The notes under the pieces were generated by a model, which was not told the origin of the DNA, ran no database searches, and worked only from the letters and a program-made list of their open reading frames with translations. A stretch of DNA of 64,000 nt from a virus: the IMG/VR virus record IMGVR_UViG_3300007616_000002, positions 12,682-76,681 of that record. One strand, 5' to 3'. Positions 728 to 49,584 of the stretch are shown here, piece by piece. Position numbers and translations under genes: made by a program. How positions within the stretch are numbered: position 1 is the first letter of the stretch; every line of letters starts with the position of its first letter.

Positions 728-1906
728 ATGAGTTTCCGAGACATTGCAAGCCAAGGCGCAGTTGACAGTCGAGAAAACAACGCAGATGATTCCGAAGATG
801 ACGGGCAGTCCGTCGAAGACTACGGCATCGACGTAGACTTCGATGAAATTGCCTTCGTCCGATGTTCGCCCACCGTCTTTGTGACGGGCGTGTTCCCGAA
901 CGAGGACGAGGGTAACCCCATCATCCGCTTCAAGAACGCGGACTACAACGACGGTCGATACGACCAAGGGTACCTCGGGCTGGTCATCGAAGACCCCGAG
1001 CCCATCGTCTCCGAAGACGAGGGAACTGGTGGCACTGTCATCCTGAAGACGGACGACCAAGACTCCACCGACTACCGAATGTTCGACTCCAACGACGACG
1101 AGACGAAGGTCGTGGAAGGCATGGGTGTCAAGTTCGGCAACAAGCTCTACGAGGGCGAGGTCCTCGAAGAGTTCTCCGAAGACCGTATTCTGCTGACGGT
1201 CAGCGGTGCTTCGTCCAAGAACGTGGCCCGTCGCCTCGACAAGAAGGGCGCTCTCGTGGCTGGCATGGACGAGGAGAACGGTGGCGTCAACGACGGCCTC
1301 ATCGAGTACAAGCCCTACGACCAGCGAGAAGACGGTCAGAACGAGGTCACGTCGCGCTACGCCCGTGACCCCGAACTCAAGACTGACCTCCACGAGACCC
1401 GTGTGGGCCTGTTCCTCGCCCGTCGTGAGGAACTGGACGACGAGAACACTGGCTACCTCGGTGCCGAAGGGCAGGGTCAGGAAGGAGACGGTCGTATTCC
1501 CCTCCTCGGGGAAGCACCTGACGGTGTGGACACGCACGCAGACCCCGATGAGGCCTCCTATGCGGAACTGGTGGCTGACGACAACCGTGGCGAGCGACCG
1601 ATGTACTGGTACGTCGTCTTCAACGTCGAGGCCGAGGAAGAAATCGAGATGGAAGAGACCGACGACGAAATCGTGGGCTACTCGTGGCTCGATGACGACT
1701 GGGACCAGTTCGACCCGAGCGTCGGCGGTATTCCCGACGACCAGTGGGAGTTCGTGGAGCACTTCGTGGAGATGGTCGATGAAGGTGAAGTGACTGACAC
1801 CTCCGAGGAGAACATCATCGCAAACATCGAAGACAACGCCGATGCCTTCGAGAGCGAGCCTGAGACGGACTCGATGGTCAACGCGATTACGAACCGCGTC
1901 GAATGA
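728..1906 (+). CDS. Acidic hypothetical protein (possible ssDNA-binding or replication protein)
   Basis: 392-aa ORF with strong haloarchaeal codon bias, TATA-like promoter near 691; function only inferred from context. Confidence 0.7.
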   Translation: MSFRDIASQGAVDSRENNADDSEDDGQSVEDYGIDVDFDEIAFVRCSPTVFVTGVFPNEDEGNPIIRFKNADYNDGRYDQGYLGLVIEDPEPIVSEDEGTGGTVILKTDDQDSTDYRMFDSNDDETKVVEGMGVKFGNKLYEGEVLEEFSEDRILLTVSGASSKNVARRLDKKGALVAGMDEENGGVNDGLIEYKPYDQREDGQNEVTSRYARDPELKTDLHETRVGLFLARREELDDENTGYLGAEGQGQEGDGRIPLLGEAPDGVDTHADPDEASYAELVADDNRGERPMYWYVVFNVEAEEEIEMEETDDEIVGYSWLDDDWDQFDPSVGGIPDDQWEFVEHFVEMVDEGEVTDTSEENIIANIEDNADAFESEPETDSMVNAITNRVE

Positions 1907-2046
1907 GCGACTACATCGTCGTGAGTGAGTACGGAACAGAGTACTCCACGCCGATGACACGACAACACGCCGTGGCAAAGGCCAACTCGCTCAACTGGTC
2001 AAAGATGCACGAAGCATCTGAAGCAGAGGCAGTCGAGGCCGAGTAA
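1903..2046 (+). CDS. Small hypothetical protein (47 aa)
   Basis: ATGA overlap with the previous stop; MSDYIVVSEYG...EAE*. Confidence 0.55.
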   Translation: MSDYIVVSEYGTEYSTPMTRQHAVAKANSLNWSKMHEASEAEAVEAE

Positions 2047-2059
2047 GGCTCCACTTGCG

Positions 2060-2070
2060 TTTTTTTTTTT
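2060..2070 (+). terminator. Oligo-T archaeal-type terminator
   Basis: 11-T run just after the stop at 2046. Confidence 0.6.
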
Positions 2071-2227
2071 GAGCAGATTACTTTCGATAGCGATAGCTAT
2101 TCAGCCTTGACAAAGTTACAGCAAGTAAACACACTGCGCTTCTTCTTATTGCACTCTCTTTCTTCATCTATCGCCACGAGATGTTCACACTTAACTTTAA
2201 CCCTACCTGTCCTTGATTGCCGGAAGA

Positions 2228-2242
2228 TTTAAGTCCCACCCG
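2228..2242 (+). promoter_or_regulatory. Viral promoter motif (TTTAAG..CCCG) for the RNA ligase operon
   Basis: TTTAAGTCCCACCCG preceded by purine-rich BRE-like GAAGA; one of about 30 copies. Confidence 0.75.
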
Positions 2243-2262
2243 ACACAACTCAAGGATGAAAG

Positions 2263-3162
2263 ATGGAAACGTATCCCAAGTTACGCTATCCCGGGGAAGA
2301 GGCCACACAAGGCCTGTTCGCCAGTGGTTCTATTGTTATACAGGAGAAGTTAGATGGTTCGAACTTTCGGTTTACGTGGGAACCCGATACTGGATTCACG
2401 TTCGGGTCTCGGCGGACTGAAGGAGAGGGTCTTCACCGTGACCAGTTTGCCGACGCTATCGAGTACGTCGAAGAGAACGTCAGTGAAGTCGAGCTACGGA
2501 GCCAGCACAACGAGTTCGGTAAGCTAGTCTACTTCGGTGAGTTCATGAACCCGCATACCATCTCGTATGACTGGGAGGGAACGCCCGACTTCATCGGCTT
2601 CGACGTATGGTCTGAGGACGCGCAGAACTTCCTCACAACGGGTCTTGTCCAATCCCTGTTCGATGGCCTCGACCTTCCCACTGCGCCGATTGTGACGACT
2701 GTGAGCGCCGATGAGTGGGACGACTACGACTTTGAGTGCCCCGAGTCCGAATACTACGACGGAAAGGCTGAGGGTGTGGTGTTCAAGAATCATACGACCG
2801 ACACTTACGGAAAGTATGTTCGAGAAGACTTCAAGGAGAAGAGCAAGCAGACCTTCGGACCCAGCAAAAAGTCCTCACTCAACGATACGGAGCGAATGGT
2901 CTACGCCTACATCACCGAGGCCCGTATTAGGAAAGCAATATATAGGCTTCAAGATGAAGAAGGTAAAAAGATTAGAATGGAGATGATGGCTGAAGGACTT
3001 CCGCAAGAAGTTATTTCGGATTTTGTAGATGAGGAAGGGTTTAACGTGTTTATGAATGAGAATTGGAAAATAGGAATTGGAGAATTCCGGTCAATAGTAT
3101 CTAGTAGATGTGCTGAAGTTCTTCGTCGTGAAGTAGATAAAAAAGTGAAGGAGGAGCTATAA
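2263..3162 (+). CDS. ATP-dependent RNA ligase (Rnl2-like)
   Basis: Nucleotidyltransferase motifs QEKLDGSNFRF (I), YFGEF (III), FIGFDV (IIIa), EGVVFK (IV), K (V). Confidence 0.88.
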   Translation: METYPKLRYPGEEATQGLFASGSIVIQEKLDGSNFRFTWEPDTGFTFGSRRTEGEGLHRDQFADAIEYVEENVSEVELRSQHNEFGKLVYFGEFMNPHTISYDWEGTPDFIGFDVWSEDAQNFLTTGLVQSLFDGLDLPTAPIVTTVSADEWDDYDFECPESEYYDGKAEGVVFKNHTTDTYGKYVREDFKEKSKQTFGPSKKSSLNDTERMVYAYITEARIRKAIYRLQDEEGKKIRMEMMAEGLPQEVISDFVDEEGFNVFMNENWKIGIGEFRSIVSSRCAEVLRREVDKKVKEEL

Positions 3163-3965
3163 TGCCTATAAAAATAACTTGTGATGAGTGTGGGGATGAA
3201 TTTACTGTTCCACCCTCGAATTCCGAGCAGAAATATTGCTCTCGTGAATGTTATTTATACAAAAATAATCCTAATAAAGAAGAAAAAGTTTCAGTCAATT
3301 GTGACTGGTGTGATAGTAATATCCAAAGAATACCGTCATTAGTAGAACGAACAGAAAATAACTTTTGTGACCAAAAGTGTTCTTCCAAATGGAGGTCTGA
3401 GAACTGGACTGGTGAACGTTCACCGACATATAAAGACGCATCTGTCGAATGCACGTGTGAATGGTGTGGTTCAGATTATGAAGAATGGAGTACTCGAAAA
3501 GAACGTACTCGATTTTGCTCTCTTGAGTGTCGGAATAAATGGCAATCTTCACGTGATGGACCCGAGCACCCACTGTACAAAGGTGGTAGAAAAGAATTTG
3601 GTGAAAATTGGAAAGAAATGAGAAGAGAAGCATTATCACATTACGGAGAAGAATGCAGTCTATGTGGAGCAGATTCATCTAATTCACTGATTGATGTTCA
3701 TCATATAATACCAAGATGGCTATGGGACAATGTTGATGATGCAGACAAACTATGGAATCTTACTCCACTTTGTAGGTCTCACCATATGAAAGTTGAACGC
3801 CAAACTGAGAAAGTTATTGAGAAAATGGCCAAAGAGGAGGCCGAGAATATCTTCATGGAGGAGAACTGGGAAATCGACACGGGTGAAACACTCTCCATCG
3901 TCTCGAACCGGTGCTCCGAGGTCCTGCGTCGGATGATTGACCAGAAAATCAAGGAGGAGCTATGA
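3162..3965 (+). mobile_element. Free-standing HNH homing endonuclease with CxxC/FCS Zn repeats, fused to a duplicate of the ligase C-terminus
   Basis: DVHHIIP...NLTPLCRSHH; repeated CxxC and FCSxxC; AT-rich; last 46 aa match the ligase end at 28/46 positions. Confidence 0.85.
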
Positions 3966-4225
3966 GTAGCCCTGTAATTTGTGAAGACTGCGGAAAGCGG
4001 GTCTCTATCTGTGCTGTCTCAACTGAGTCAAAGGAAGAATACAAGAAAAGCTACGGCGGATTCGTCCAGTCAAAAGGTGAGCGTGTGTCGGTGAGACTTG
4101 GCCTCGCCTGTGTTTGTACGGTCTACACCGGGCATAAATTGAGATATGAAGGGCTAGATTCGGGAACATTCAAAGAGAAACCCGAGAAGTTCCCGGAAAA
4201 TTGGATTAAGGTGAAAGATGACTAA
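3962..4225 (+). CDS. Small Cys-rich hypothetical protein
   Basis: CEDC...CVC; ATGA coupling. Confidence 0.6.
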   Translation: MSSPVICEDCGKRVSICAVSTESKEEYKKSYGGFVQSKGERVSVRLGLACVCTVYTGHKLRYEGLDSGTFKEKPEKFPENWIKVKDD

Positions 4226-4607
4226 AGAGTACACCATCGAGGTTGATGTGGATGGGGAGCCCACTGAGGTAACCCTCTCTCAGCCCCAAGGAATAGAGTT
4301 TATGCACATAGTGGCGACGATGCCCGATAGCTTCTCTGAAATGGGGCCTGAAATTGACCTTGATTCAGATGATGTTGATTGGTTACAGGCCCTTCTGGAG
4401 GTTACAACAGACCTTAGCCGCCGTGAGATACAATCTGGTATCTCTGTCGAAGACCTCAATAAACTAATTGGTGCCTCAGCAGAAGTGTTCGCAGGTGAAG
4501 AACCTAGCACACCCAGCGATAGTTTTCGAATAGAACGGTCTGAAGGACCGTTCGAGGCGTTTGAGCTTGACAGTGATGGGTCTGTTGACACGGATGAGTG
4601 GCGATGA
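4218..4607 (+). CDS. Hypothetical protein (weak resemblance to tail-assembly chaperones)
   Basis: 129-aa acidic ORF overlapping both neighbours. Confidence 0.6.
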   Translation: MTKEYTIEVDVDGEPTEVTLSQPQGIEFMHIVATMPDSFSEMGPEIDLDSDDVDWLQALLEVTTDLSRREIQSGISVEDLNKLIGASAEVFAGEEPSTPSDSFRIERSEGPFEAFELDSDGSVDTDEWR

Positions 4608-5014
4608 GTGAGACCACCCAGTGCCCTCTTGAAGGTTTGAAAGAAGATTCAGATGGATGTGATGGGCAGGCAAATCTACTGTTTGACGGCTCGTTGTACT
4701 GTCCAACATGTGAAAACATGTTTGAAACAGAGTACACCCTTCGGGACGAAGATGAGAATATGTATGCAGAAGAAGTTCGAGACCTTCTGGAAGAAGACGC
4801 TGAAGTAGTGTATGAAGAGTATATCCGACTACTCGACCTGTATTACAAGAAACCTTTAGGATTCCCCGATGAAGGGCTGTATCAACGCTTTCAGTGCATA
4901 TTTCCTCTGCTTATTGTAAAATATATACAAACTATGAAATCGTACCAAGAGGAAGTAAATCGAGAGATTAGAAACCAACTTCGGAGACAATCAATAAATA
5001 AAAAGACAGTTTGA
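4604..5014 (+). CDS. Hypothetical protein with N-terminal Cys cluster
   Basis: C..C..CPTC; ATGA overlap. Confidence 0.55.
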   Translation: MSETTQCPLEGLKEDSDGCDGQANLLFDGSLYCPTCENMFETEYTLRDEDENMYAEEVRDLLEEDAEVVYEEYIRLLDLYYKKPLGFPDEGLYQRFQCIFPLLIVKYIQTMKSYQEEVNREIRNQLRRQSINKKTV

Positions 5015-5038
5015 CTACGAGTTTGTTAAGAAGAAAGG

Positions 5039-5053
5039 TTTAAGTACCACCCG
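5039..5053 (+). promoter_or_regulatory. Viral promoter motif TTTAAGTACCACCCG
   Basis: Consensus copy 33 nt upstream of ATG 5072 (near-leaderless). Confidence 0.8.
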
Positions 5054-5071
5054 AGACTATTTTCGGGCACA

Positions 5072-5530
5072 ATGAACGACGAAGAACGAATTGATGCTGT
5101 TTTGAGCGCGGTGGCAAACGTGCTCCTCGATAAAGGTGATGGGTATAGCGTCGGCCAATTGGTGGCTGACCTCGAAGGAGATGGAAATACACATGAGTCT
5201 GACCCGTACCACGTGTGGGACCGGCACTTCCTTCAAGACATGGAGAAGCAAGCTACTGAATGGCGAGACGAGCCCCGTGACTTCGAAGAGGTAGAGAGTC
5301 TCATGGACGCCTTCTACGAGTACTGGTCCGAAAATACGGAGAAGAAATTCTGCCAGATTGTATGCATGGCACACGCTATCGAGAATGGAATTAGTGGATA
5401 TAATGATGAATCTCCGTATCAGGAACCGATAGATAATCTTGGGGATGACCAGTTACGACGGTATCTAAACAAGCGCCTCGAAAAAGAGGACTTCGAAGTT
5501 GAAGCCGCGGAGGCTATCATCAATGAGTGA
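5072..5530 (+). CDS. Hypothetical protein
   Basis: 152-aa acidic ORF behind a consensus promoter. Confidence 0.7.
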   Translation: MNDEERIDAVLSAVANVLLDKGDGYSVGQLVADLEGDGNTHESDPYHVWDRHFLQDMEKQATEWRDEPRDFEEVESLMDAFYEYWSENTEKKFCQIVCMAHAIENGISGYNDESPYQEPIDNLGDDQLRRYLNKRLEKEDFEVEAAEAIINE

Positions 5531-6422: not shown

Positions 6423-6911
6423 ATGAAGTTCAATCAGACCAAGAAGTCTATTGCTGAGAGAACTCGGACGACCAATCACGAGGGTGGGGAGGCGTTCGAA
6501 CCCGAAGATGTTCGACTTGGGCTTTATAAAGTCGTTATCAACAATCTTCTTGAAGACTCGTTCTACGAGTCCGACGAGGAGAGCTTTGACAAGGTGAAGT
6601 CACGTTTTGAGGAGTGTGTCATCGAGCACCCCGAGTTCGTGCTGAAGCTCGCCTACTGGGCCCGTGAAGAGGCGTACCTTCGGCAGATTCCCCAGCTACT
6701 GCTCGTGTTTGCGGCTAACAACGAGCACACGAAGGGGTACGTCCGTGAGTACTCTACTGGAGTCATGCAACGGGCTGACGAGCCGCTGGAGGTGCTTGCA
6801 ATGCAGGTGGAACTCTTTGGGACGAGTATTCCGAACCCTCTCCAGAAGGGTATCGAGGACGCACTGCACACGTTCGATGAGTACGAAGTGTCAAAATGGG
6901 ATACAGCATGA
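6423..6911 (+). CDS. Ro60/TROVE protein, N-terminal half
   Basis: TTNHEGGEAF, EDSFYES, LAYWAREEAYLR, QRADE, FDEY..SKW, all typical of TROVE domains. Confidence 0.88.
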   Translation: MKFNQTKKSIAERTRTTNHEGGEAFEPEDVRLGLYKVVINNLLEDSFYESDEESFDKVKSRFEECVIEHPEFVLKLAYWAREEAYLRQIPQLLLVFAANNEHTKGYVREYSTGVMQRADEPLEVLAMQVELFGTSIPNPLQKGIEDALHTFDEYEVSKWDTA

Positions 6912-7693
6912 GCTGGAATAAAGTTTCCAAGTCAGAGTGTACCGGTGCTCTGGTTCAGGCGAAGCAGGAGTTGGGTGAGTCGCCCAGCGTGTCCCAGTAC
7001 CGTGAGTTGGACCTACAACCAACAGTCTACACCATGCAAAATAAATTCGGTTCGTGGAACAAGGCGAAAAGGGCCGCTGGCCTGCAAGCTTGCACCAACC
7101 GTGTTGTGAGTGATGACGAGATAAGCATTGCCATCAACCTGTACGCAGGTGGACTGTCAGTCCGGGAGGTTGCTGATGAGTTAGAAGTCCAACCACAGAC
7201 AATCCATTACCACCTTCAGAATGAGGGGGTTACCGAGTCCATCTCTGAGGCTCTAAAAGGACGTGACCATAGCTGGGGAGACAAGATTTCGCAATCTCTG
7301 GAAGGTCATGAGGTTAGCGAATCAACTCGTGAGAAGATTTCAGAGACCCATACCGGGAAAGAGCCTTGGAACAAGGGAAAAACGAAGAAATCCCACCCAG
7401 ACGAAATCGACTACGGGCGCTCAGGTGAAGCGCACCATGCTTGGAAGGGTGGTATTAGTAGTGAGTTGAACCGACTGCGACAAACACCTGAGTACAAGGA
7501 ATGGCGTAAGTCAGTGTTCGAGCGTGACAACTGGACATGCCAAGATTGCGGTCAGAGAGGCGGTGAATTGAACGCGCATCATATCAAATCATTTGCGGAG
7601 AACGAAGACCTTCGGTTTGACGTAGATAACGGAGAGACACTATGCAAGGAACATCATATCGAGCGACACATGACGGAGGAGAGAAATGAGTAA
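6908..7693 (+). mobile_element. HNH homing endonuclease (HTH + NUMOD3-like + HNH) inserted in the TROVE gene
   Basis: FGSWNKAKRAAGL, HEVSESTREKIS, PWNKG, WKGG, RDNWTCQDCG...AHHIK...NGETLCKEHH. Confidence 0.9.
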
Positions 7694-41676: not shown

Positions 41677-41991
41677 TCATCCGTCGAGTAACTCGTCCTC
41701 TGTGTACTCGTAAGCTTGCTCAAACCCACCGGGTAAAATCGGCTTGTTCGAGTGGGCGTATCTGTGCTTTTCCGAGCCACAGAACCTGTTTTCGTAGAAG
41801 TCAGTAGAAATTTCATCAGTTGGGTCACGGTCGGCGCTAAGCGCGTGTTTATCCTCTCCCCGAAAAACGCGATAACATACGTCGCAGACTAACTCGTGTG
41901 TGTTGACCCATAAATCACCTTCTTCACAGTTTGGACATTCGCCCTCAGTTACGTCGTAGTTGTCGTCCTTGAGACTCATGGTCACTGCCAT
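41677..41991 (-). CDS. Zn-ribbon protein
   Basis: CPNC...CDVC. Confidence 0.65.
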   Translation of the reverse strand: MAVTMSLKDDNYDVTEGECPNCEEGDLWVNTHELVCDVCYRVFRGEDKHALSADRDPTDEISTDFYENRFCGSEKHRYAHSNKPILPGGFEQAYEYTEDELLDG

Positions 41992-42734
41992 TATGCATCG
42001 TCCACACCAGCTTCAACGATTGATTCGAGGTCCTCGTTCATCCCTTCACGCAGGTCTGCGAACTCTTCGAACATTTCTTCGGGAGTCTCGAACCACTCGG
42101 GTGAGCTACTGACTTCCCACGTCTCTGAGTCTGGGTGCATCTTGATGACTTGACACTGGTCAATCTCGATATTGACAGCGTTCTTGTACGCAGTCAACTG
42201 CATTTTATGCTTGTCGTAGACCCGCTTGCTAGTCTTTAAATCTGCCAGTGTCACCTTTCCGTCCTTGTCGATGTAGAGCATGTCAAATTGACCTGCATAT
42301 CCAAGGCTCGTATTCTGGACGAAGCATTCAACGTCGAGAACAGAGTCATGGTTGATGCCATGTTTTGCCTTAATCTCTTCCCACGCTTCTTGTGCCCAGA
42401 ATAGATTCGCTCGGTATTCTTGCCATGAACCGTAGTCTGTTCCTTTTTTGAGTTCCTGTTCAGCTTCCTCCTCGTTGTGGCCCCCAATATCTTCCTCGGC
42501 AAATGGGTCCAGAAGATGATAGTGAATAAGGGTACCACGGTAACTTTTAAAATTCAAAATATTCCTCCAATGTGGTCGTCCGCCAGTTCCGTCGTTCCAC
42601 TGCTTCCATTTCTTTAGCCCTTCAGGTGTCGGCTTAGTATCAAGTACTGTCGTAACAGATGGGAGGTACATTTCGTGTTCATCAGAAAAATAAACACGAC
42701 CAACTCCCTCTAGTGTTCTTCGTTCTAGTCCCAT
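41991..42734 (-). CDS. PD-(D/E)XK exonuclease (Cas4/RecB-like phage exonuclease)
   Basis: LPSVTTVL, RGTLIH, YAGQFD, ADLKTS, QLTAY. Confidence 0.88.
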   Translation of the reverse strand: MGLERRTLEGVGRVYFSDEHEMYLPSVTTVLDTKPTPEGLKKWKQWNDGTGGRPHWRNILNFKSYRGTLIHYHLLDPFAEEDIGGHNEEEAEQELKKGTDYGSWQEYRANLFWAQEAWEEIKAKHGINHDSVLDVECFVQNTSLGYAGQFDMLYIDKDGKVTLADLKTSKRVYDKHKMQLTAYKNAVNIEIDQCQVIKMHPDSETWEVSSSPEWFETPEEMFEEFADLREGMNEDLESIVEAGVDDA

Positions 42735-42788: not shown

Positions 42789-43448
42789 TTACTCAGCCGG
42801 ATGTGCGGGACACTCCATTCTCTCATTTGATTCGGCTTTAATATGACAAGATTGGCATAGTACTACTATATTTAGTTGGAAGTTAGAATCTTCAACGGTG
42901 AAATATTCACTCTGTATAAATGCTCTTCTGGGCAAGATGTGATGAGCGGAGAGCCTTCTACCGTTTTCCTCTTCTGTTTTCCCGAAGATTTCACACTCTC
43001 CTCCGGCACGCTCCCATGCTTCTTTTCGAACATTTATCCAATTTGACCCAAATTGACGATATTTACCATTTCGGTAATTAGGGTTGTCCTCACCGGACCA
43101 CTTCCTTGCCCTCCAATCTGATGTACATTTTGTACTGCAAAATTGGCGCTCTTGGTCCTTTGTCCGAGACTTCATTTGTTCAAACTCTGTTTCACATTTT
43201 TCACAAGTTACCATGACTCGGTTATCGGACTCTCTGTATTTTGCTGAACAAGACCTATCACAAAATTTTTTCTTTTCTGAAGGTCTATACGATATTTCAT
43301 TTCCACAGTATTTACAATTATCTTTTATTAAATTCTTTTGAAATTCATCATGGCATTCTTTACTGCAAAAAAGGTTATTTGAGCGATTTAACTCATTTGG
43401 CTCACGATGTATTCCTTTAGAGCAGTGAGAACAATTAGCTTTGACCAT
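42789..43448 (-). mobile_element. Free-standing HNH homing endonuclease with Zn repeats
   Basis: FCSxxC repeats, SAHHILP...NIVVLCQSCH; AT-rich; same family as 3162-3965. Confidence 0.85.
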
Positions 43449-43550
43449 ATTAAGCAATTCTTTTTATAACATATAAATCTTTCGCCTGAGTACGCTCCTT
43501 GGTAAAAAGTTACCGAAACGTTTAAGTACTGCCCGGTACAAAAGGGGTAT

Positions 43551-45063: not shown

Positions 45064-45543
45064 TTACTTCGTCACGTTCGACATATTCTTGCTTTCATCT
45101 ATGTCAAACGTATTCTTTGCCCACTCTTTACCTTTCTGTGGGTTCCAGTCAACGCCGTTGTAATGGTCTCTGGGACGAACCCACGGATTCAACTCGTAGT
45201 GGGCCCAGACAGCTACACCATCTTCATGCGGCCAGAGACGGACGTGATACTGGTACTCTCCAAAGAACCCGTTCGGGACATACGCATAGCTTGCACGCTC
45301 ATAGACGCGCTCACCGTCCTGTGTCTCTCTCCACTTGAGTGCGGCGAGGTTCCGAGAGTAGACGTTCTCCATCGACTGAAGCTCTTCAACTACGTCTGCA
45401 ACGGTTCGGTCAACAATTACCCCTGTATAGGTTCGGTTTTGTCCCTTTTTGGAGAACATAATATCTTTTCCGAACCAAGATTCTTCATTTTGTTCAAATA
45501 TTGGTACTACAATCCGACGGAAGGTATTAAGGTCAGGGTACAT
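45064..45543 (-). CDS. Hypothetical protein
   Basis: QYHVRLW...AHYELNP..HY. Confidence 0.6.
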   Translation of the reverse strand: MYPDLNTFRRIVVPIFEQNEESWFGKDIMFSKKGQNRTYTGVIVDRTVADVVEELQSMENVYSRNLAALKWRETQDGERVYERASYAYVPNGFFGEYQYHVRLWPHEDGVAVWAHYELNPWVRPRDHYNGVDWNPQKGKEWAKNTFDIDESKNMSNVTK

Positions 45544-45547
45544 GCTT

Positions 45548-46240
45548 CTAAATTTGTACCCAACTACTTCCGTCCCAATATTGGACGTTAGATGGAATGT
45601 TCCCACTGCCGTATTTTACGACTTTTTCGTTCCAAGAAGAACCATCGTAGATTTTGGCAACAAATGCTACCTGTATAGACTGTTCTGATGAAGATGCTGA
45701 ACCTGCGGAATTATATACATTTACTCGGTAATAGTTCGCCTTTCCGAGAGTTGGGCTAGAATCAGTGTACGAGGTCGAATCAGCCGAAATATCTGCTATT
45801 TGTGATAGTGAGCCACTGCTTGTACCACGGTATATTTTAAATCCACTTTCATTATCAGAATTATCACTCCACGTAAGCTCAACAGAGGTTGCGTCAGGCG
45901 ATGAGAGTGATAAGTTAGATGGAGCAGATGGTGGTGCTTTATCAGTACTAACTGTTATTACACTTGAATCAGCCGATTTATGCTCAGTTTTGGCAGTGAC
46001 GTAGAAATCATACGTAGTGTCCGATGAAAGACTAGATACAGTATAAGATGTACTAGTTACATTTCCATCTTTAGTCCATGAAGAAGTTGATGATTCTCTA
46101 TAATATATATCATATGAATCAGCATCAGAAGAACCCCAATCTAAAACTACAGACGAAGAATCTTTTCCATCTTCGTGTAATGGGCCGGGAAAACTTAGGT
46201 CAGTAGTAACACTGACTTCGGTGGATAGGCTTTCAGTCAT
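45548..46240 (-). CDS. Fibronectin type III repeat protein (tail or adhesin)
   Basis: Two FN3 repeats (LDW..YDIYY, LTWSDNSDNESGFKIYR). Confidence 0.8.
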   Translation of the reverse strand: MTESLSTEVSVTTDLSFPGPLHEDGKDSSSVVLDWGSSDADSYDIYYRESSTSSWTKDGNVTSTSYTVSSLSSDTTYDFYVTAKTEHKSADSSVITVSTDKAPPSAPSNLSLSSPDATSVELTWSDNSDNESGFKIYRGTSSGSLSQIADISADSTSYTDSSPTLGKANYYRVNVYNSAGSASSSEQSIQVAFVAKIYDGSSWNEKVVKYGSGNIPSNVQYWDGSSWVQI

Positions 46241-47052
46241 TGGTCAGATGATGCTATTCTATAATAATATTTTTCTCCATTTGAAACTGTACTATCCGTG
46301 TAAGAGGTTGTATTTCCTTCAATAGAATCTATTTGAGTATAGTCACTTTGAGTTGAGCCAGAACTTTCTGAACGATATATATTGAATGAAGTAGCATATT
46401 CTGCATCCCAAGACAAATATGAGTCATTGTTGCTAAGAGAAGCACTAACATTTGTAGGTTCAGATGGTGGTACAGTTTGAGTTATATCGTCAATATAATA
46501 GACCATATCACCATTATAGCTGGAAGATTCTATATAAATACTGTCTAATGTAAGTTCTTTATTAATACTTCCCATTGAATCACTATTCCAAATCTCACCC
46601 GTATCTTTTTCAATAACTCTTGCATCTAAAGAGTATCCGTCATCTGGATAAAACTCAAATTCTATTCTATATTCTACGTTTTCAGTGAGGTTACTAAATC
46701 CGAGAGAATCATACATACTATCATACCAATAATGTACATCATCATCATCAATGGAAAATTCTAATTGATTATAATCCCCAAATACAAGTCGAAATTCGCC
46801 ACCATTTATCTTTGTAAAAAGTATATCAAAACTAACTATTCCGCCTGCACTGGTATCAGGATAATGGAACGAAGCTGAAGATTCACTGTAAAGGTTGGCA
46901 TCAGTAGATGATGTACAAGATACTTTTAGCTGTTGGCTTCCATCAAAATAACCCCAATTACCTGTTTCTATGTTAGCCCCTACATAGTAGTCATTAACAT
47001 CCCACCTATCAAGGCCGTTTTCAAAGTCTTCTATTATTTCTGTAATAGCCAT
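46237..47052 (-). CDS. Lectin-like plus FN3 domain protein
   Basis: IIEDFE N-terminus, C-terminal FN3 (LSWD..FNIYRS..YTD..YYYRI). Confidence 0.7.
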   Translation of the reverse strand: MAITEIIEDFENGLDRWDVNDYYVGANIETGNWGYFDGSQQLKVSCTSSTDANLYSESSASFHYPDTSAGGIVSFDILFTKINGGEFRLVFGDYNQLEFSIDDDDVHYWYDSMYDSLGFSNLTENVEYRIEFEFYPDDGYSLDARVIEKDTGEIWNSDSMGSINKELTLDSIYIESSSYNGDMVYYIDDITQTVPPSEPTNVSASLSNNDSYLSWDAEYATSFNIYRSESSGSTQSDYTQIDSIEGNTTSYTDSTVSNGEKYYYRIASSDQ

Positions 47053-47055
47053 AAT

Positions 47056-47736
47056 TTACGAAGTATCAATCCACACGTCGTTTGTACTTGGACTGCTCGG
47101 TGATGAAGACTGAACGAATATATTTGAGCCGTCTACACTATCAGCGTCAATTCCACCACCACTTCCTTCATCATTCTGTGTTAAAATGGGGCTTCCACCA
47201 GCAGTGGTACCGCTGTTCAGAGATGCTCCTGTAACAACATCGACCGATTCAGGAGCAACATCATGTGAAGATTTGTAGTGCTCATGTACAGCCTGTACTA
47301 GCTCCTCGTAGTTAGGACTCTCTCCAGTAAAGGAACCCTCATCTTCTCTTGCATACACTACATTAGAGTCTTCATTTTTCTCATGGACACACTGAGCACA
47401 GACTACTGTCTTTTGCTTACCATTGATTTTGTTGTACTCTACGTACCCGTAACATCCATCATATTCTCCATACTCAACTACTCCGATGTACAGCCCGTCT
47501 TTAGTTTTAATACTAACAACCGGGTCTACCAAGTCCCCAGAAACTTCACGGAGGACTGATTGAGCTTCCCATTCGTTAAGAGAGCATGTTTCTTTGATTA
47601 GCTCGACCGACTCCTGCTGTGTGAAAAGCTCTCCTTCATTTTCATGAAAGGCGTTTGCGGCATCCCGAACGTTCTGATACGTGAGTTTTCTCTCACTTTC
47701 AGATTGTTCAAGAATTTCTTTTGCGTTTTCTGACAT
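47056..47736 (-). CDS. Tail-fibre-associated protein
   Basis: GSGGGIDADSVDG repeat and P...DVWIDTS end. Confidence 0.6.
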   Translation of the reverse strand: MSENAKEILEQSESERKLTYQNVRDAANAFHENEGELFTQQESVELIKETCSLNEWEAQSVLREVSGDLVDPVVSIKTKDGLYIGVVEYGEYDGCYGYVEYNKINGKQKTVVCAQCVHEKNEDSNVVYAREDEGSFTGESPNYEELVQAVHEHYKSSHDVAPESVDVVTGASLNSGTTAGGSPILTQNDEGSGGGIDADSVDGSNIFVQSSSPSSPSTNDVWIDTS

Positions 47737-48012: not shown

Positions 48013-49584
48013 TTACAGTGCAGAACCCTCTACATATTCTCCTTCGATAGAGAGGTTTCCGTTTGTTCTGTCGAGGCTCATCCTATCTTCACCGTTCGAC
48101 TCGTCAGACCAAACCATCGAATCTGTATCTCCGTGATACCTCATTCCGAAGTAACTTCCTTCTCCGAGCTTAAGCAGAGCATCTTCCAAGTCGAGATTCA
48201 TCGACGGAGTTCCAGTGTCCGCTGTATCTGAACCCGGAGATATTTTCACAGTCCCGGAGCCGTCGTCAGGCCCTTCGAATGTGAAGTTGTTAGCCTTCCA
48301 AGTATCTGCTTTATCAGCACGAAGGAACTGTGTTACTTCAAGGCCTTCGAACAAATCAGCGTTTAGTCCTATCCACTCACTGCCGTTGTCGTACTTCACC
48401 CTGCCCGTATCCGAGGCGATAAACACACGGTTTTTCGTTCCTTGGCTCGGGAGATTACTCTCTGTGTTTGCTATTATTTCACTGGCATCTGAATCCGCTA
48501 TTTCCTCAAGGCTAGTCGTCTTGGTGTGATGGTCGTCAGTGTTTACGCCTGACAGTTGGCTGTGGGAAGTAACTCCGATGTTCTTCCATGAGCTACCGCT
48601 GTCATACTGTATTATTCCAGTGTTTGATGAAATGAATACAGTTCCGGATGAACCCGCTGATGGCCGATTGGACTCATTGTCAATGATAATATCTGACGCA
48701 TCTGAATCGTCAAGTTCATCCAGAGAGACGGTCTTTGAGTGGTGGGCGTCTGCTGTCCCTTCGTGTTGATTGAGTTCGGTCTGTGTAGCCGGGTCGAATC
48801 CGAGGTCGGAAGGTGAGATTTTAGACGCGTCGAGGGAGAGACGAATCCAAGAGTTTCCATCATCGTAGTAGACAGACTGTGTGTCTGTCTCGAAGAATAT
48901 CCTACCCTCTTTACTTGCTGTCGGTCGATTACTCGAACTGTCCTCTATAAGACCAGTTACACCATCAACGTCATCATCTCTGAGACTCTGTATTCCTGAG
49001 TACTTCCAGCCAGATTTAGTGTAGTACCAAAGACCCTGAGTGTCAGAGCTATCTCCGGTAATGTATATTATATTACCTTCACCACTTTCAGCCTTTCTAA
49101 CTTCACCGTATATTGGGATTCCAAGGTCGAGAAACGAGCGGAATCGACCGACTTCAATATCTGGATTCCTGTTCTTGAGCGATTGGCTGTTGCTAGAAGT
49201 ATCTATTTCACCAAGTAGAAGCTCATCAGAACTGGCATTAGCATCGTTGGTATAGACATTAATCAGCGGACTATCATTACTCCCAACATTCCCATCCAGA
49301 TATACATAATTTACTGTGCTTGAAGAAAGTGGAATTGTTTCACTTGGAACGTGAAGTGCATACAGCGCGTGTAGAACGCTCTCACCGTTTCCTTTACTGG
49401 ATTCATCTTTCAGGACAAACGCTTTTCCAGTCGTCACATCTGCTGTGAGATTGCTATAATCTACGTTCTGGAACTCCAATCCAGTTTCTACATAATCAGA
49501 CAGGTTTGAATGTCCGACGTGTGCCGCGAAGTCCTCTGCAAATCCTTTATCACCACTTTGTGGAAACGAATTTTGTGTAACCAT
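48013..49584 (-). CDS. Tail fibre protein
   Basis: Repeated RP.A..GR.F..DT...YD.G..W units, HH motifs. Confidence 0.75.
   Translation of the reverse strand: MVTQNSFPQSGDKGFAEDFAAHVGHSNLSDYVETGLEFQNVDYSNLTADVTTGKAFVLKDESSKGNGESVLHALYALHVPSETIPLSSSTVNYVYLDGNVGSNDSPLINVYTNDANASSDELLLGEIDTSSNSQSLKNRNPDIEVGRFRSFLDLGIPIYGEVRKAESGEGNIIYITGDSSDTQGLWYYTKSGWKYSGIQSLRDDDVDGVTGLIEDSSSNRPTASKEGRIFFETDTQSVYYDDGNSWIRLSLDASKISPSDLGFDPATQTELNQHEGTADAHHSKTVSLDELDDSDASDIIIDNESNRPSAGSSGTVFISSNTGIIQYDSGSSWKNIGVTSHSQLSGVNTDDHHTKTTSLEEIADSDASEIIANTESNLPSQGTKNRVFIASDTGRVKYDNGSEWIGLNADLFEGLEVTQFLRADKADTWKANNFTFEGPDDGSGTVKISPGSDTADTGTPSMNLDLEDALLKLGEGSYFGMRYHGDTDSMVWSDESNGEDRMSLDRTNGNLSIEGEYVEGSAL

Follow-up and report, generated by a model that had tools for sequence, protein, structure and literature searches.

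We found that nucleotides 2923-3818 of the window, the 64,000-nucleotide stretch of viral DNA analyzed here, probably represent an AT-rich mobile cassette, which combines the foreign last 78 codons of an RNA ligase gene with an HNH homing-endonuclease gene and which has taken the place of resident ligase codons 222 to ~250. The features of the locus, all on the plus strand, are listed below with the evidence behind each call.

2263..3162, plus strand: hybrid Rnl2-like RNA ligase gene, 299 amino acids, complete and closed by TAA (PF09414, AF2, invariant columns)
2263..2922, plus strand: native ligase part, residues 1-220/221, GC3 ~0.7 (tree, composition)
2923..3159, plus strand: foreign replacement ligase 3' end, residues 222-299 (copy 1), AT-rich (tree, indels, composition)
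3148..3164, plus strand: AAGGAGGAGCTA followed by TAATG, in which the ligase stop overlaps the HNH start (read from the sequence)
3162..3965, plus strand: HNH endonuclease ORF, 267 amino acids, reading in frame into the displaced ligase tail (Pfam, conserved columns, AF2)
3162..3818, plus strand: HNH core of the cassette, residues 1 to ~214-219 (alignment ends of relatives)
3819..3962, plus strand: displaced native ligase tail (copy 2) (composition, tblastn, tree)
3951..3965, plus strand: native AAGGAGGAGCTA followed by an ATGA-type overlap (CTATGA) of the HNH stop and the next ORF start (read from the sequence)
3962..4225, plus strand: downstream 87-amino-acid ORF, its start embedded in the retained native tail (ORF call)

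The virus record from which the window is taken is a single sequence of 76,681 bp with a GC content of 49.7%, and the window covers its bases 12682-76681. The nearest annotated relatives of its ligase and HNH genes belong to tailed viruses of haloarchaea, and judged by these relatives the host of the two genes is a 76.7-kb haloarchaeal tailed virus. The closest annotated ligase, at 46% identity, is that of HGTV-1, and searches of phage and plasmid collections returned no closer one. Matches to the HNH protein include genes of HRTV-28, HCTV-1, HVTV-1, and others.

The ligase ORF matched the Pfam family PF09414 (RNA_ligase) with 77 bits (E = 2e-21), and residues E28, K29, and D31, in the region of the KxDG lysine motif, are invariant in the family alignment. 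Its AF2 model (pLDDT 89.8) places helices at residues 188-298, and the top Foldseek matches to this model were full-length T4 Rnl2 (2hvr/2hvq; E = 1e-10). As modeled, the enzyme is Rnl2-like, with a nucleotidyltransferase domain and an all-helical C-terminal domain. We found 41 relatives with identities of 32 to 69%, and every column that is invariant in 35 relatives is retained in the window ligase. In Rnl2-type ligases, the C-terminal helical domain is required for the full ligation reaction, so truncation at codon 222 or 250 would disable the ligase.

The last third of the ligase family is a patchwork. Residues 196-222 (nucleotides 2848-2928) occur in at least three types that are discordant with the N-terminal tree, which suggests a recombination hot spot adjoining the cassette site. 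By sliding identity, the window ligase resembles allele P0002 in residues 1-195 and P0004 in residues 196-222, and allele P0010 is P0014-like up to residue 195 and P0002-like thereafter. One further ligase, at 4001-4947 of locus L090 on a scaffold binned as Candidatus Nanosalina J07AB43, is frameshifted at residues ~223-240; the break coincides with the region of the left cassette boundary and leaves the last 61 codons as a separate ORF, and it may be a sequencing error in an old assembly.

Base composition divides the locus into blocks. The GC content is 0.538 in the first part of the ligase gene (2263-2925), 0.368 in the rest of it (2926-3159), 0.382 over most of the HNH ORF (3162-3824), and 0.529 at the end of that ORF (3825-3962). 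The initial annotation had placed the AT-rich span at about 2926 to about 3825, and a two-breakpoint fit on third codon positions confirmed it with slightly shifted borders, giving a block from nucleotide 2923 to 3818 with a GC3 of 0.26 inside and 0.69 outside. The log-likelihood ratio of this fit was 55.6, compared with at most 11.4 in 200 shuffles.

Either side of the HNH core lies a ligase C terminus. The last 46 residues of the ligase and of the HNH ORF are identical at 28 of 46 positions, exactly as the initial annotation had counted, and BLASTP extended the similarity to 32 of 59 (E = 2e-17). At the DNA level, the 138-nucleotide tails share 82 positions (59%); by codon position, the identities are 33/46 (first), 37/46 (second), and 12/46 (third), and the last value implies that synonymous sites are saturated. 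The shared ending before the next start, also reported earlier, is indeed present in both copies, as the 12-mer AAGGAGGAGCTA at 3148-3159 and again at 3951-3962. It encodes KEEL and holds a GGAGG Shine-Dalgarno-like site. Read as four codons, AAGGAGGAGCTA forms a GC-rich end to the AT-rich cassette tail, which is consistent with, and at most suggestive of, selection for GGAGG before the HNH start; the overlap of the ligase stop and the HNH start may likewise serve translational coupling.

Phylogenetic analysis traced the two parts of the ligase gene to different sources. For residues 1-221, the nearest allele is P0002, which is 74% identical over the 221 residues and is the sister of the window ligase in the tree (73/97.6), and P0010 pairs with P0014 (100/99) within another clade (99/99). 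Forcing the window ligase and P0010 together in this N-part tree cost 85 log-likelihood units (AU p 0.0016). In the tree of residues 222-299, by comparison, copy 1 and the P0010 tail are sisters (98/91), and a clade of copy 1 and P0002 was rejected (AU p 0.002), the clades for these AU tests having been chosen after the alignment was seen. The discordance of the two trees indicates that the same type of tail sits on two unrelated ligase backgrounds. Two indels occur only in the window ligase and P0010: a one-residue deletion in "DEG-E" and an extra G in "AEGLP." In a sliding comparison with P0010, identities of 15 to 17 of 20 were reached only in residues 226-265, the likeness starting at about residue 226. 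Copy 1 has a GC content of 0.368 and a GC3 of ~0.25, the same composition as the HNH gene, and it retains D253, E257, E258, R276, S277, R282, and C283. These comparisons show the ligase to be a chimera whose 3' end shares its composition with the HNH gene and its ancestry with the P0010 allele, and they uphold the earlier proposal that the ligase had been supplied with a replacement end. No viral contig matched a degenerate pattern built on the cassette-specific peptide MEMMAEGLPQ.

The same data bear on an origin in place, by tandem duplication of the ligase 3' end followed by insertion of the HNH gene between the copies and by divergence. The two copies are collinear and end in the same 12-mer, as such an event would predict. 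Several findings nevertheless make it very improbable: a clade of copy 1 and copy 2 was rejected (AU p 0.02) and copy 1 instead joins P0010, third-position identity between the copies is about random, the composition of copy 1 is that of the HNH gene and not that of the genome, and copy 2 is shorter than the segment that was replaced.

Copy 2 has the characteristics of the former resident end. Ligase-like similarity starts at ~3804, corresponding to ligase residue 247; the composition changes at 3819, and from there the GC content of 0.529 and GC3 of ~0.8 are genome-like. With HNH residues 216-267 as the query, tblastn matched the RNA ligase gene of HGTV-1 at its 3' end (50% identity, E = 2e-7); in a separate search with the tail alone (residues 215-267), the sole match was the window's own protein. 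At M254, A255, A259, I262, E269, D271, M290, and I291, copy 2 has the family consensus and copy 1 departs from it. Copy 2 also carries F275T and R276L, which are absent from 36/36 homologues, R276 being invariant. Intact invariant residues in copy 1 and the loss of F275 and R276 from copy 2 are what one would expect of a copy 1 that now works for the enzyme and a copy 2 that was once the native end and is under relaxed constraint.

The initial annotation had also anticipated that HNH-free ligase alleles would resemble copy 2 more than copy 1. Among the available alleles the counts lean that way, copy 2 being the better match in 30 of 43 comparisons and copy 1 in 9, with 4 ties, but by small margins in comparisons that are not independent and with no allele above 74% identity. 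P0002, the nearest relative of the N part, barely separates the copies (27 versus 28 of 46), and the nearest tails to copy 2 are those of P0003 (70%), P0007, P0006, and P0002, a weak placement (87/84). As the closest allele for comparison reaches only 74% in its N part, the case that copy 2 is native rests mainly on composition, with the weak placement and small margins in addition. The genome-like composition and the HGTV-1 match show that the last 46 to 53 codons of the resident gene have been kept in frame downstream, where they now extend the HNH protein at its C terminus.

The stop codon of copy 2 overlaps the start of an 87-amino-acid ORF (3962-4225), which had no Pfam match and in which no similarity could be detected to the ORFs located after the ligase in other loci. 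In HGTV-1, the ligase overlaps a small downstream ORF in the same way (genes 217/218).

We assigned the second ORF to the HNH endonucleases on several lines of evidence. The Pfam HNH scores are marginal, with HNH_2 at 22.0 bits (cut-off, 21) and HNH at 17.8 bits, under its cut-off; zf_Tbcl_2 was matched too. Annotated halovirus HNH endonucleases were matched at E values down to 1e-22, 7557 relatives were found at an E value of ≤1e-3, and in an alignment with 41 relatives the columns C165, C168, H180, H181, C204, and H208 show no variation and N199 shows almost none. The AF2 model shows three zinc modules, an HNH fold, and then, at lower confidence, a helical hairpin made by the captured tail. 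The tail has no counterpart in these relatives: in all of the best 150 of the 7557, the alignment ends at query residue 225 or before, and free-standing HNH relatives stop 0 to 15 residues past the HHxKxE motif, with P0045, the closest of them, also lacking a tail. By these alignments, the ligase-like tail lies outside the HNH family, in agreement with the earlier claim that the HNH ORF had kept the original ligase end as its own tail.

A second HNH protein, P0044, shares 45% identity with the window HNH protein and likewise has a ligase-like C-terminal tail, which matches ligase positions 270-293 (hhalign probability 84%, E = 7e-6) and is joined at ligase position ~270. The recurrence of such a tail ties this HNH lineage to ligase 3' ends. 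The different join of P0044 argues either for repeated break repair with different right-hand joins or for a single event followed by deletion. With the HNH alignment as query, a profile search of viral contigs returned four distant loci, none with a ligase tail, and a metagenome search returned two loci, both irrelevant.

Two in-frame ligase-like tails on HNH proteins that are just 45% identical could also mean that the captured tail works as a domain of the endonuclease, for instance as a helical hairpin that contacts the ligase or its partners or that tunes the nuclease, and in the AF2 model the last HNH helix runs directly into the tail hairpin. We regard such an exaptation as quite unlikely, for copy 2 is altered at ligase-invariant positions with no sign of a new conserved pattern, most HNH relatives have no tail, and an in-frame join has a one-in-three chance and would also be favored by keeping the downstream start context.

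The two cassette junctions differ in kind. On the left, the conserved YITEARI motif is immediately followed by the junction, which falls within helix 219-233 of the modeled C-terminal domain and thus at a likely place for a homologous crossover and not at a domain boundary. The right junction is nonhomologous: the helix of the HNH motif passes into ligase-like sequence at about residue 215, which corresponds to ligase position 247. Between the two, native codons 222 to ~247-253 are missing, and the resident ligase gene would therefore have lost about 25 to 32 codons by replacement rather than received a clean insertion. The proposed insertion into the ligase gene hence stands as far as the foreign 3' segment is concerned, and falls as far as it implied that nothing was removed.

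Logan contigs from three runs, belonging to three studies, bridge the left junction (2381-3349 and 2576-3568) and the right junction (3549-4442, 3051-4600, and 3563-4236) with at most one differing letter, far from the junctions. As both junctions are bridged without difference in three runs, we rejected an assembly artifact. An intron- or intein-borne endonuclease was rejected as well: no Rfam family matched 1900-4400 at an E value of ≤1, the Pfam results for the ligase and HNH ORFs contained no intein or Hint domain, and the ligase stop at 3160-3162 precedes the HNH ORF, the flanking reading frames differing with the stop between them. The absence of splicing, as originally claimed, is in line with the lack of any matching intron model. 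A transposon-like insertion was rejected on the finding that no direct or inverted repeats flank the cassette.

We propose that the spare ligase tail and the HNH gene would have entered together by double-strand-break repair. A putative HNH cut in HNH-free ligase alleles near codons 247-254 would leave a left broken end that could invade the donor in conserved ligase sequence, with a crossover just past YITEARI. Repair would then copy the spare tail and, after it, the HNH gene, and the recipient's own tail would be where the right end is resolved or to which it is joined. Immunity of the carrier would follow because copy 1 is recoded, to the 59% nucleotide identity given above, and because only the right half of the site is left in copy 2. 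With the spare tail, the ligase would retain its essential C-terminal helical domain, and read-through of the old tail would end the ribosome at the old stop/start overlap, so that the start context of the next gene is kept. We infer from this arrangement that copy 1 may be resistant to cleavage and that translational coupling to the next gene may have been maintained, as the initial annotation had suggested.

Alternatively, a related AT-rich virus could have delivered the same segment passively, by ordinary or illegitimate recombination, with the HNH gene as a passenger that does not target the ligase and that is perhaps inactive or has another role. The last third of the ligase is mosaic even away from the cassette, as the P0004-like and P0002-like segments described above attest, HNH genes of the ligase-associated family occupy many different positions in haloviruses, and cleavage by the HNH protein is a prediction from sequence. 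Yet the catalytic and zinc-binding residues of the HNH protein are intact, a ligase-like tail is likewise joined to the second member of its lineage (P0044), cassette-type tails occur on two unrelated N-terminal backgrounds, and the right junction is nonhomologous and intragenic, as break repair at a cut site, but not a crossover, would predict. We therefore consider passive acquisition rather unlikely and favor entry of the cassette by break repair.

A bolder proposal is that the cassette is an autonomous homing unit that is now spreading among haloarchaeal viruses, with the retained tail serving both as a right homology arm and as an uncuttable half-site; we put this forward tentatively, giving it somewhat less than an even chance. 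If true, the cassette would be a natural cut-and-rescue drive, repeated invasions would explain the patchwork modules in the last third of the ligase family, and in-frame capture of the old tail would have been selected for keeping translation of the downstream gene coupled.

The distribution of the HNH gene is sporadic. More than 20 other loci with a ligase tail were examined, and each has one tail and no HNH gene beside it; in HGTV-1, the ligase directly precedes the next ORF with no HNH gene between them. Such absence is as expected of a homing element. A viral-contig search with the single ligase found nothing, the same search with the ligase alignment found only distant ligases (≤48% identity), all without an HNH gene, and a genome-contig search found ligases of ≤45% identity, again all without an HNH gene. 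Contigs of the three runs in which the virus occurs contained no HNH-free joint and show only the presence of the cassette form.

Contigs in the same three soil metagenomes carry other ligase alleles, one of them P0014-like, which align with window positions 2809-2859 and 3811-3863, so potential recipients or donors coexist with the carrier virus. A foreign contig in those runs matches copy 2, up to position 3863, at ≥80% identity, and none matches copy 1.

Temperate phages and islands whose attachment sites lie in tRNA or protein genes restore the 3' end of the gene into which they integrate. As in the window, the incoming DNA brings a replacement 3' end and the target gene stays whole. Those elements differ in using an integrase and short identical attachment sites and in leaving the displaced end as a short, near-identical repeat, whereas the window cassette has neither an integrase nor a flanking repeat and its copies are 59% identical.

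By our comparison, the closest known design is that of the mobile endonuclease ORFs (mORFs) of fungal mitochondria, as in atp6 of Allomyces macrogynus (Paquin, Laforest & Lang 1994, as cited in PMC3630166). Hybrid genes of this kind are described for atp6, atp9, cox2, and nad3 of Glomus sp. (Beaudet et al. 2013, PMC3630166), in the order of gene core with an in-phase foreign C terminus, endonuclease ORF, and native C terminus, and cleavage of the empty allele by the endonuclease is reported there for Allomyces atp6. As far as that account describes the mORFs, the two systems agree in four respects: the endonuclease ORF occupies a site in the 3' part of a protein gene and has neither intron nor intein around it, the foreign C-terminal segment continues the native core in phase and yields a full-length hybrid gene, the native C terminus is displaced downstream of the endonuclease ORF, and the two C termini are strongly diverged at the DNA level. 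They differ, on the same account, in that the window nuclease belongs to the HNH enzymes, with three zinc modules, and not to the LAGLIDADG or GIY-YIG enzymes, and its host is a haloarchaeal virus and not an organelle. The window nuclease ORF also has its own start, which overlaps the ligase stop, and it absorbs the native tail together with the stop that overlaps the next gene's start. Cleavage of an empty allele has been demonstrated for Allomyces (PMC3630166), whereas for the window nuclease it is a prediction.

The free-standing endonucleases of T4-type phages, SegF, SegG, and MobE, practice intronless homing with co-conversion of flanking markers (PMC2988022, PMC2790892). From what these sources describe, they resemble the window HNH gene in being free-standing HNH or GIY-YIG genes that adjoin or lie inside a conserved gene, are sporadic, and replace the flank with donor sequence. 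They are described as sitting between genes or splitting a gene into two working halves (Aeh1 nrdA/mobE), unlike the window cassette, and as described they carry neither a duplicate gene end nor a displaced native end. Our literature search found no account of the spare-tail design in phages or archaeal viruses.

On the usual view, a homing endonuclease can persist in essential or useful genes only with the help of an intron, an intein, or an intergenic site. A recoded spare gene end would be a third way for a homing endonuclease to live in such genes. By sequence comparison, this design, previously documented in fungal mitochondria, here appears with an HNH enzyme in an archaeal virus, which suggests that it is general. 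Cassettes of this type could drive 3'-end mosaicism in viral genes, and cut-and-rescue designs would find a natural template in them. A candidate target site for the HNH endonuclease can be predicted from the right junction.

Two further HNH genes were noticed in the window. Another AT-rich island (GC, 0.36) contains a free-standing paralogue of the cassette HNH gene (42789-43457, minus strand; 27% identity, E = 3e-21), upstream of a 247-amino-acid ORF (41991-42734) that resembles Cas4/RecB-type nucleases; the paralogue stops 15 residues past the HNH motif and has no captured tail. An unrelated HNH gene (6423-7693), with HNH_repeat, NUMOD3, helix-turn-helix, and HNH domains and a genome-like GC content, is preceded by a 162-amino-acid ORF.

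AT-rich DNA also occurs elsewhere in the window. A 350-bp stretch at 4770-5119 (GC, 0.40) spans the 3' end of ORF 4598-5014 and the spacer that follows. The longest AT-rich island, at 45370-47119 (1.75 kb; GC, 0.37; minus strand), encodes serine/threonine-rich proteins that resemble fibronectin-type repeat proteins, and the neighboring 523-amino-acid protein (48013-49584, minus strand) contains an internal repeat of ~50 residues. Together, the island and its neighbor are probably a tail-fiber or host-range module of foreign origin.
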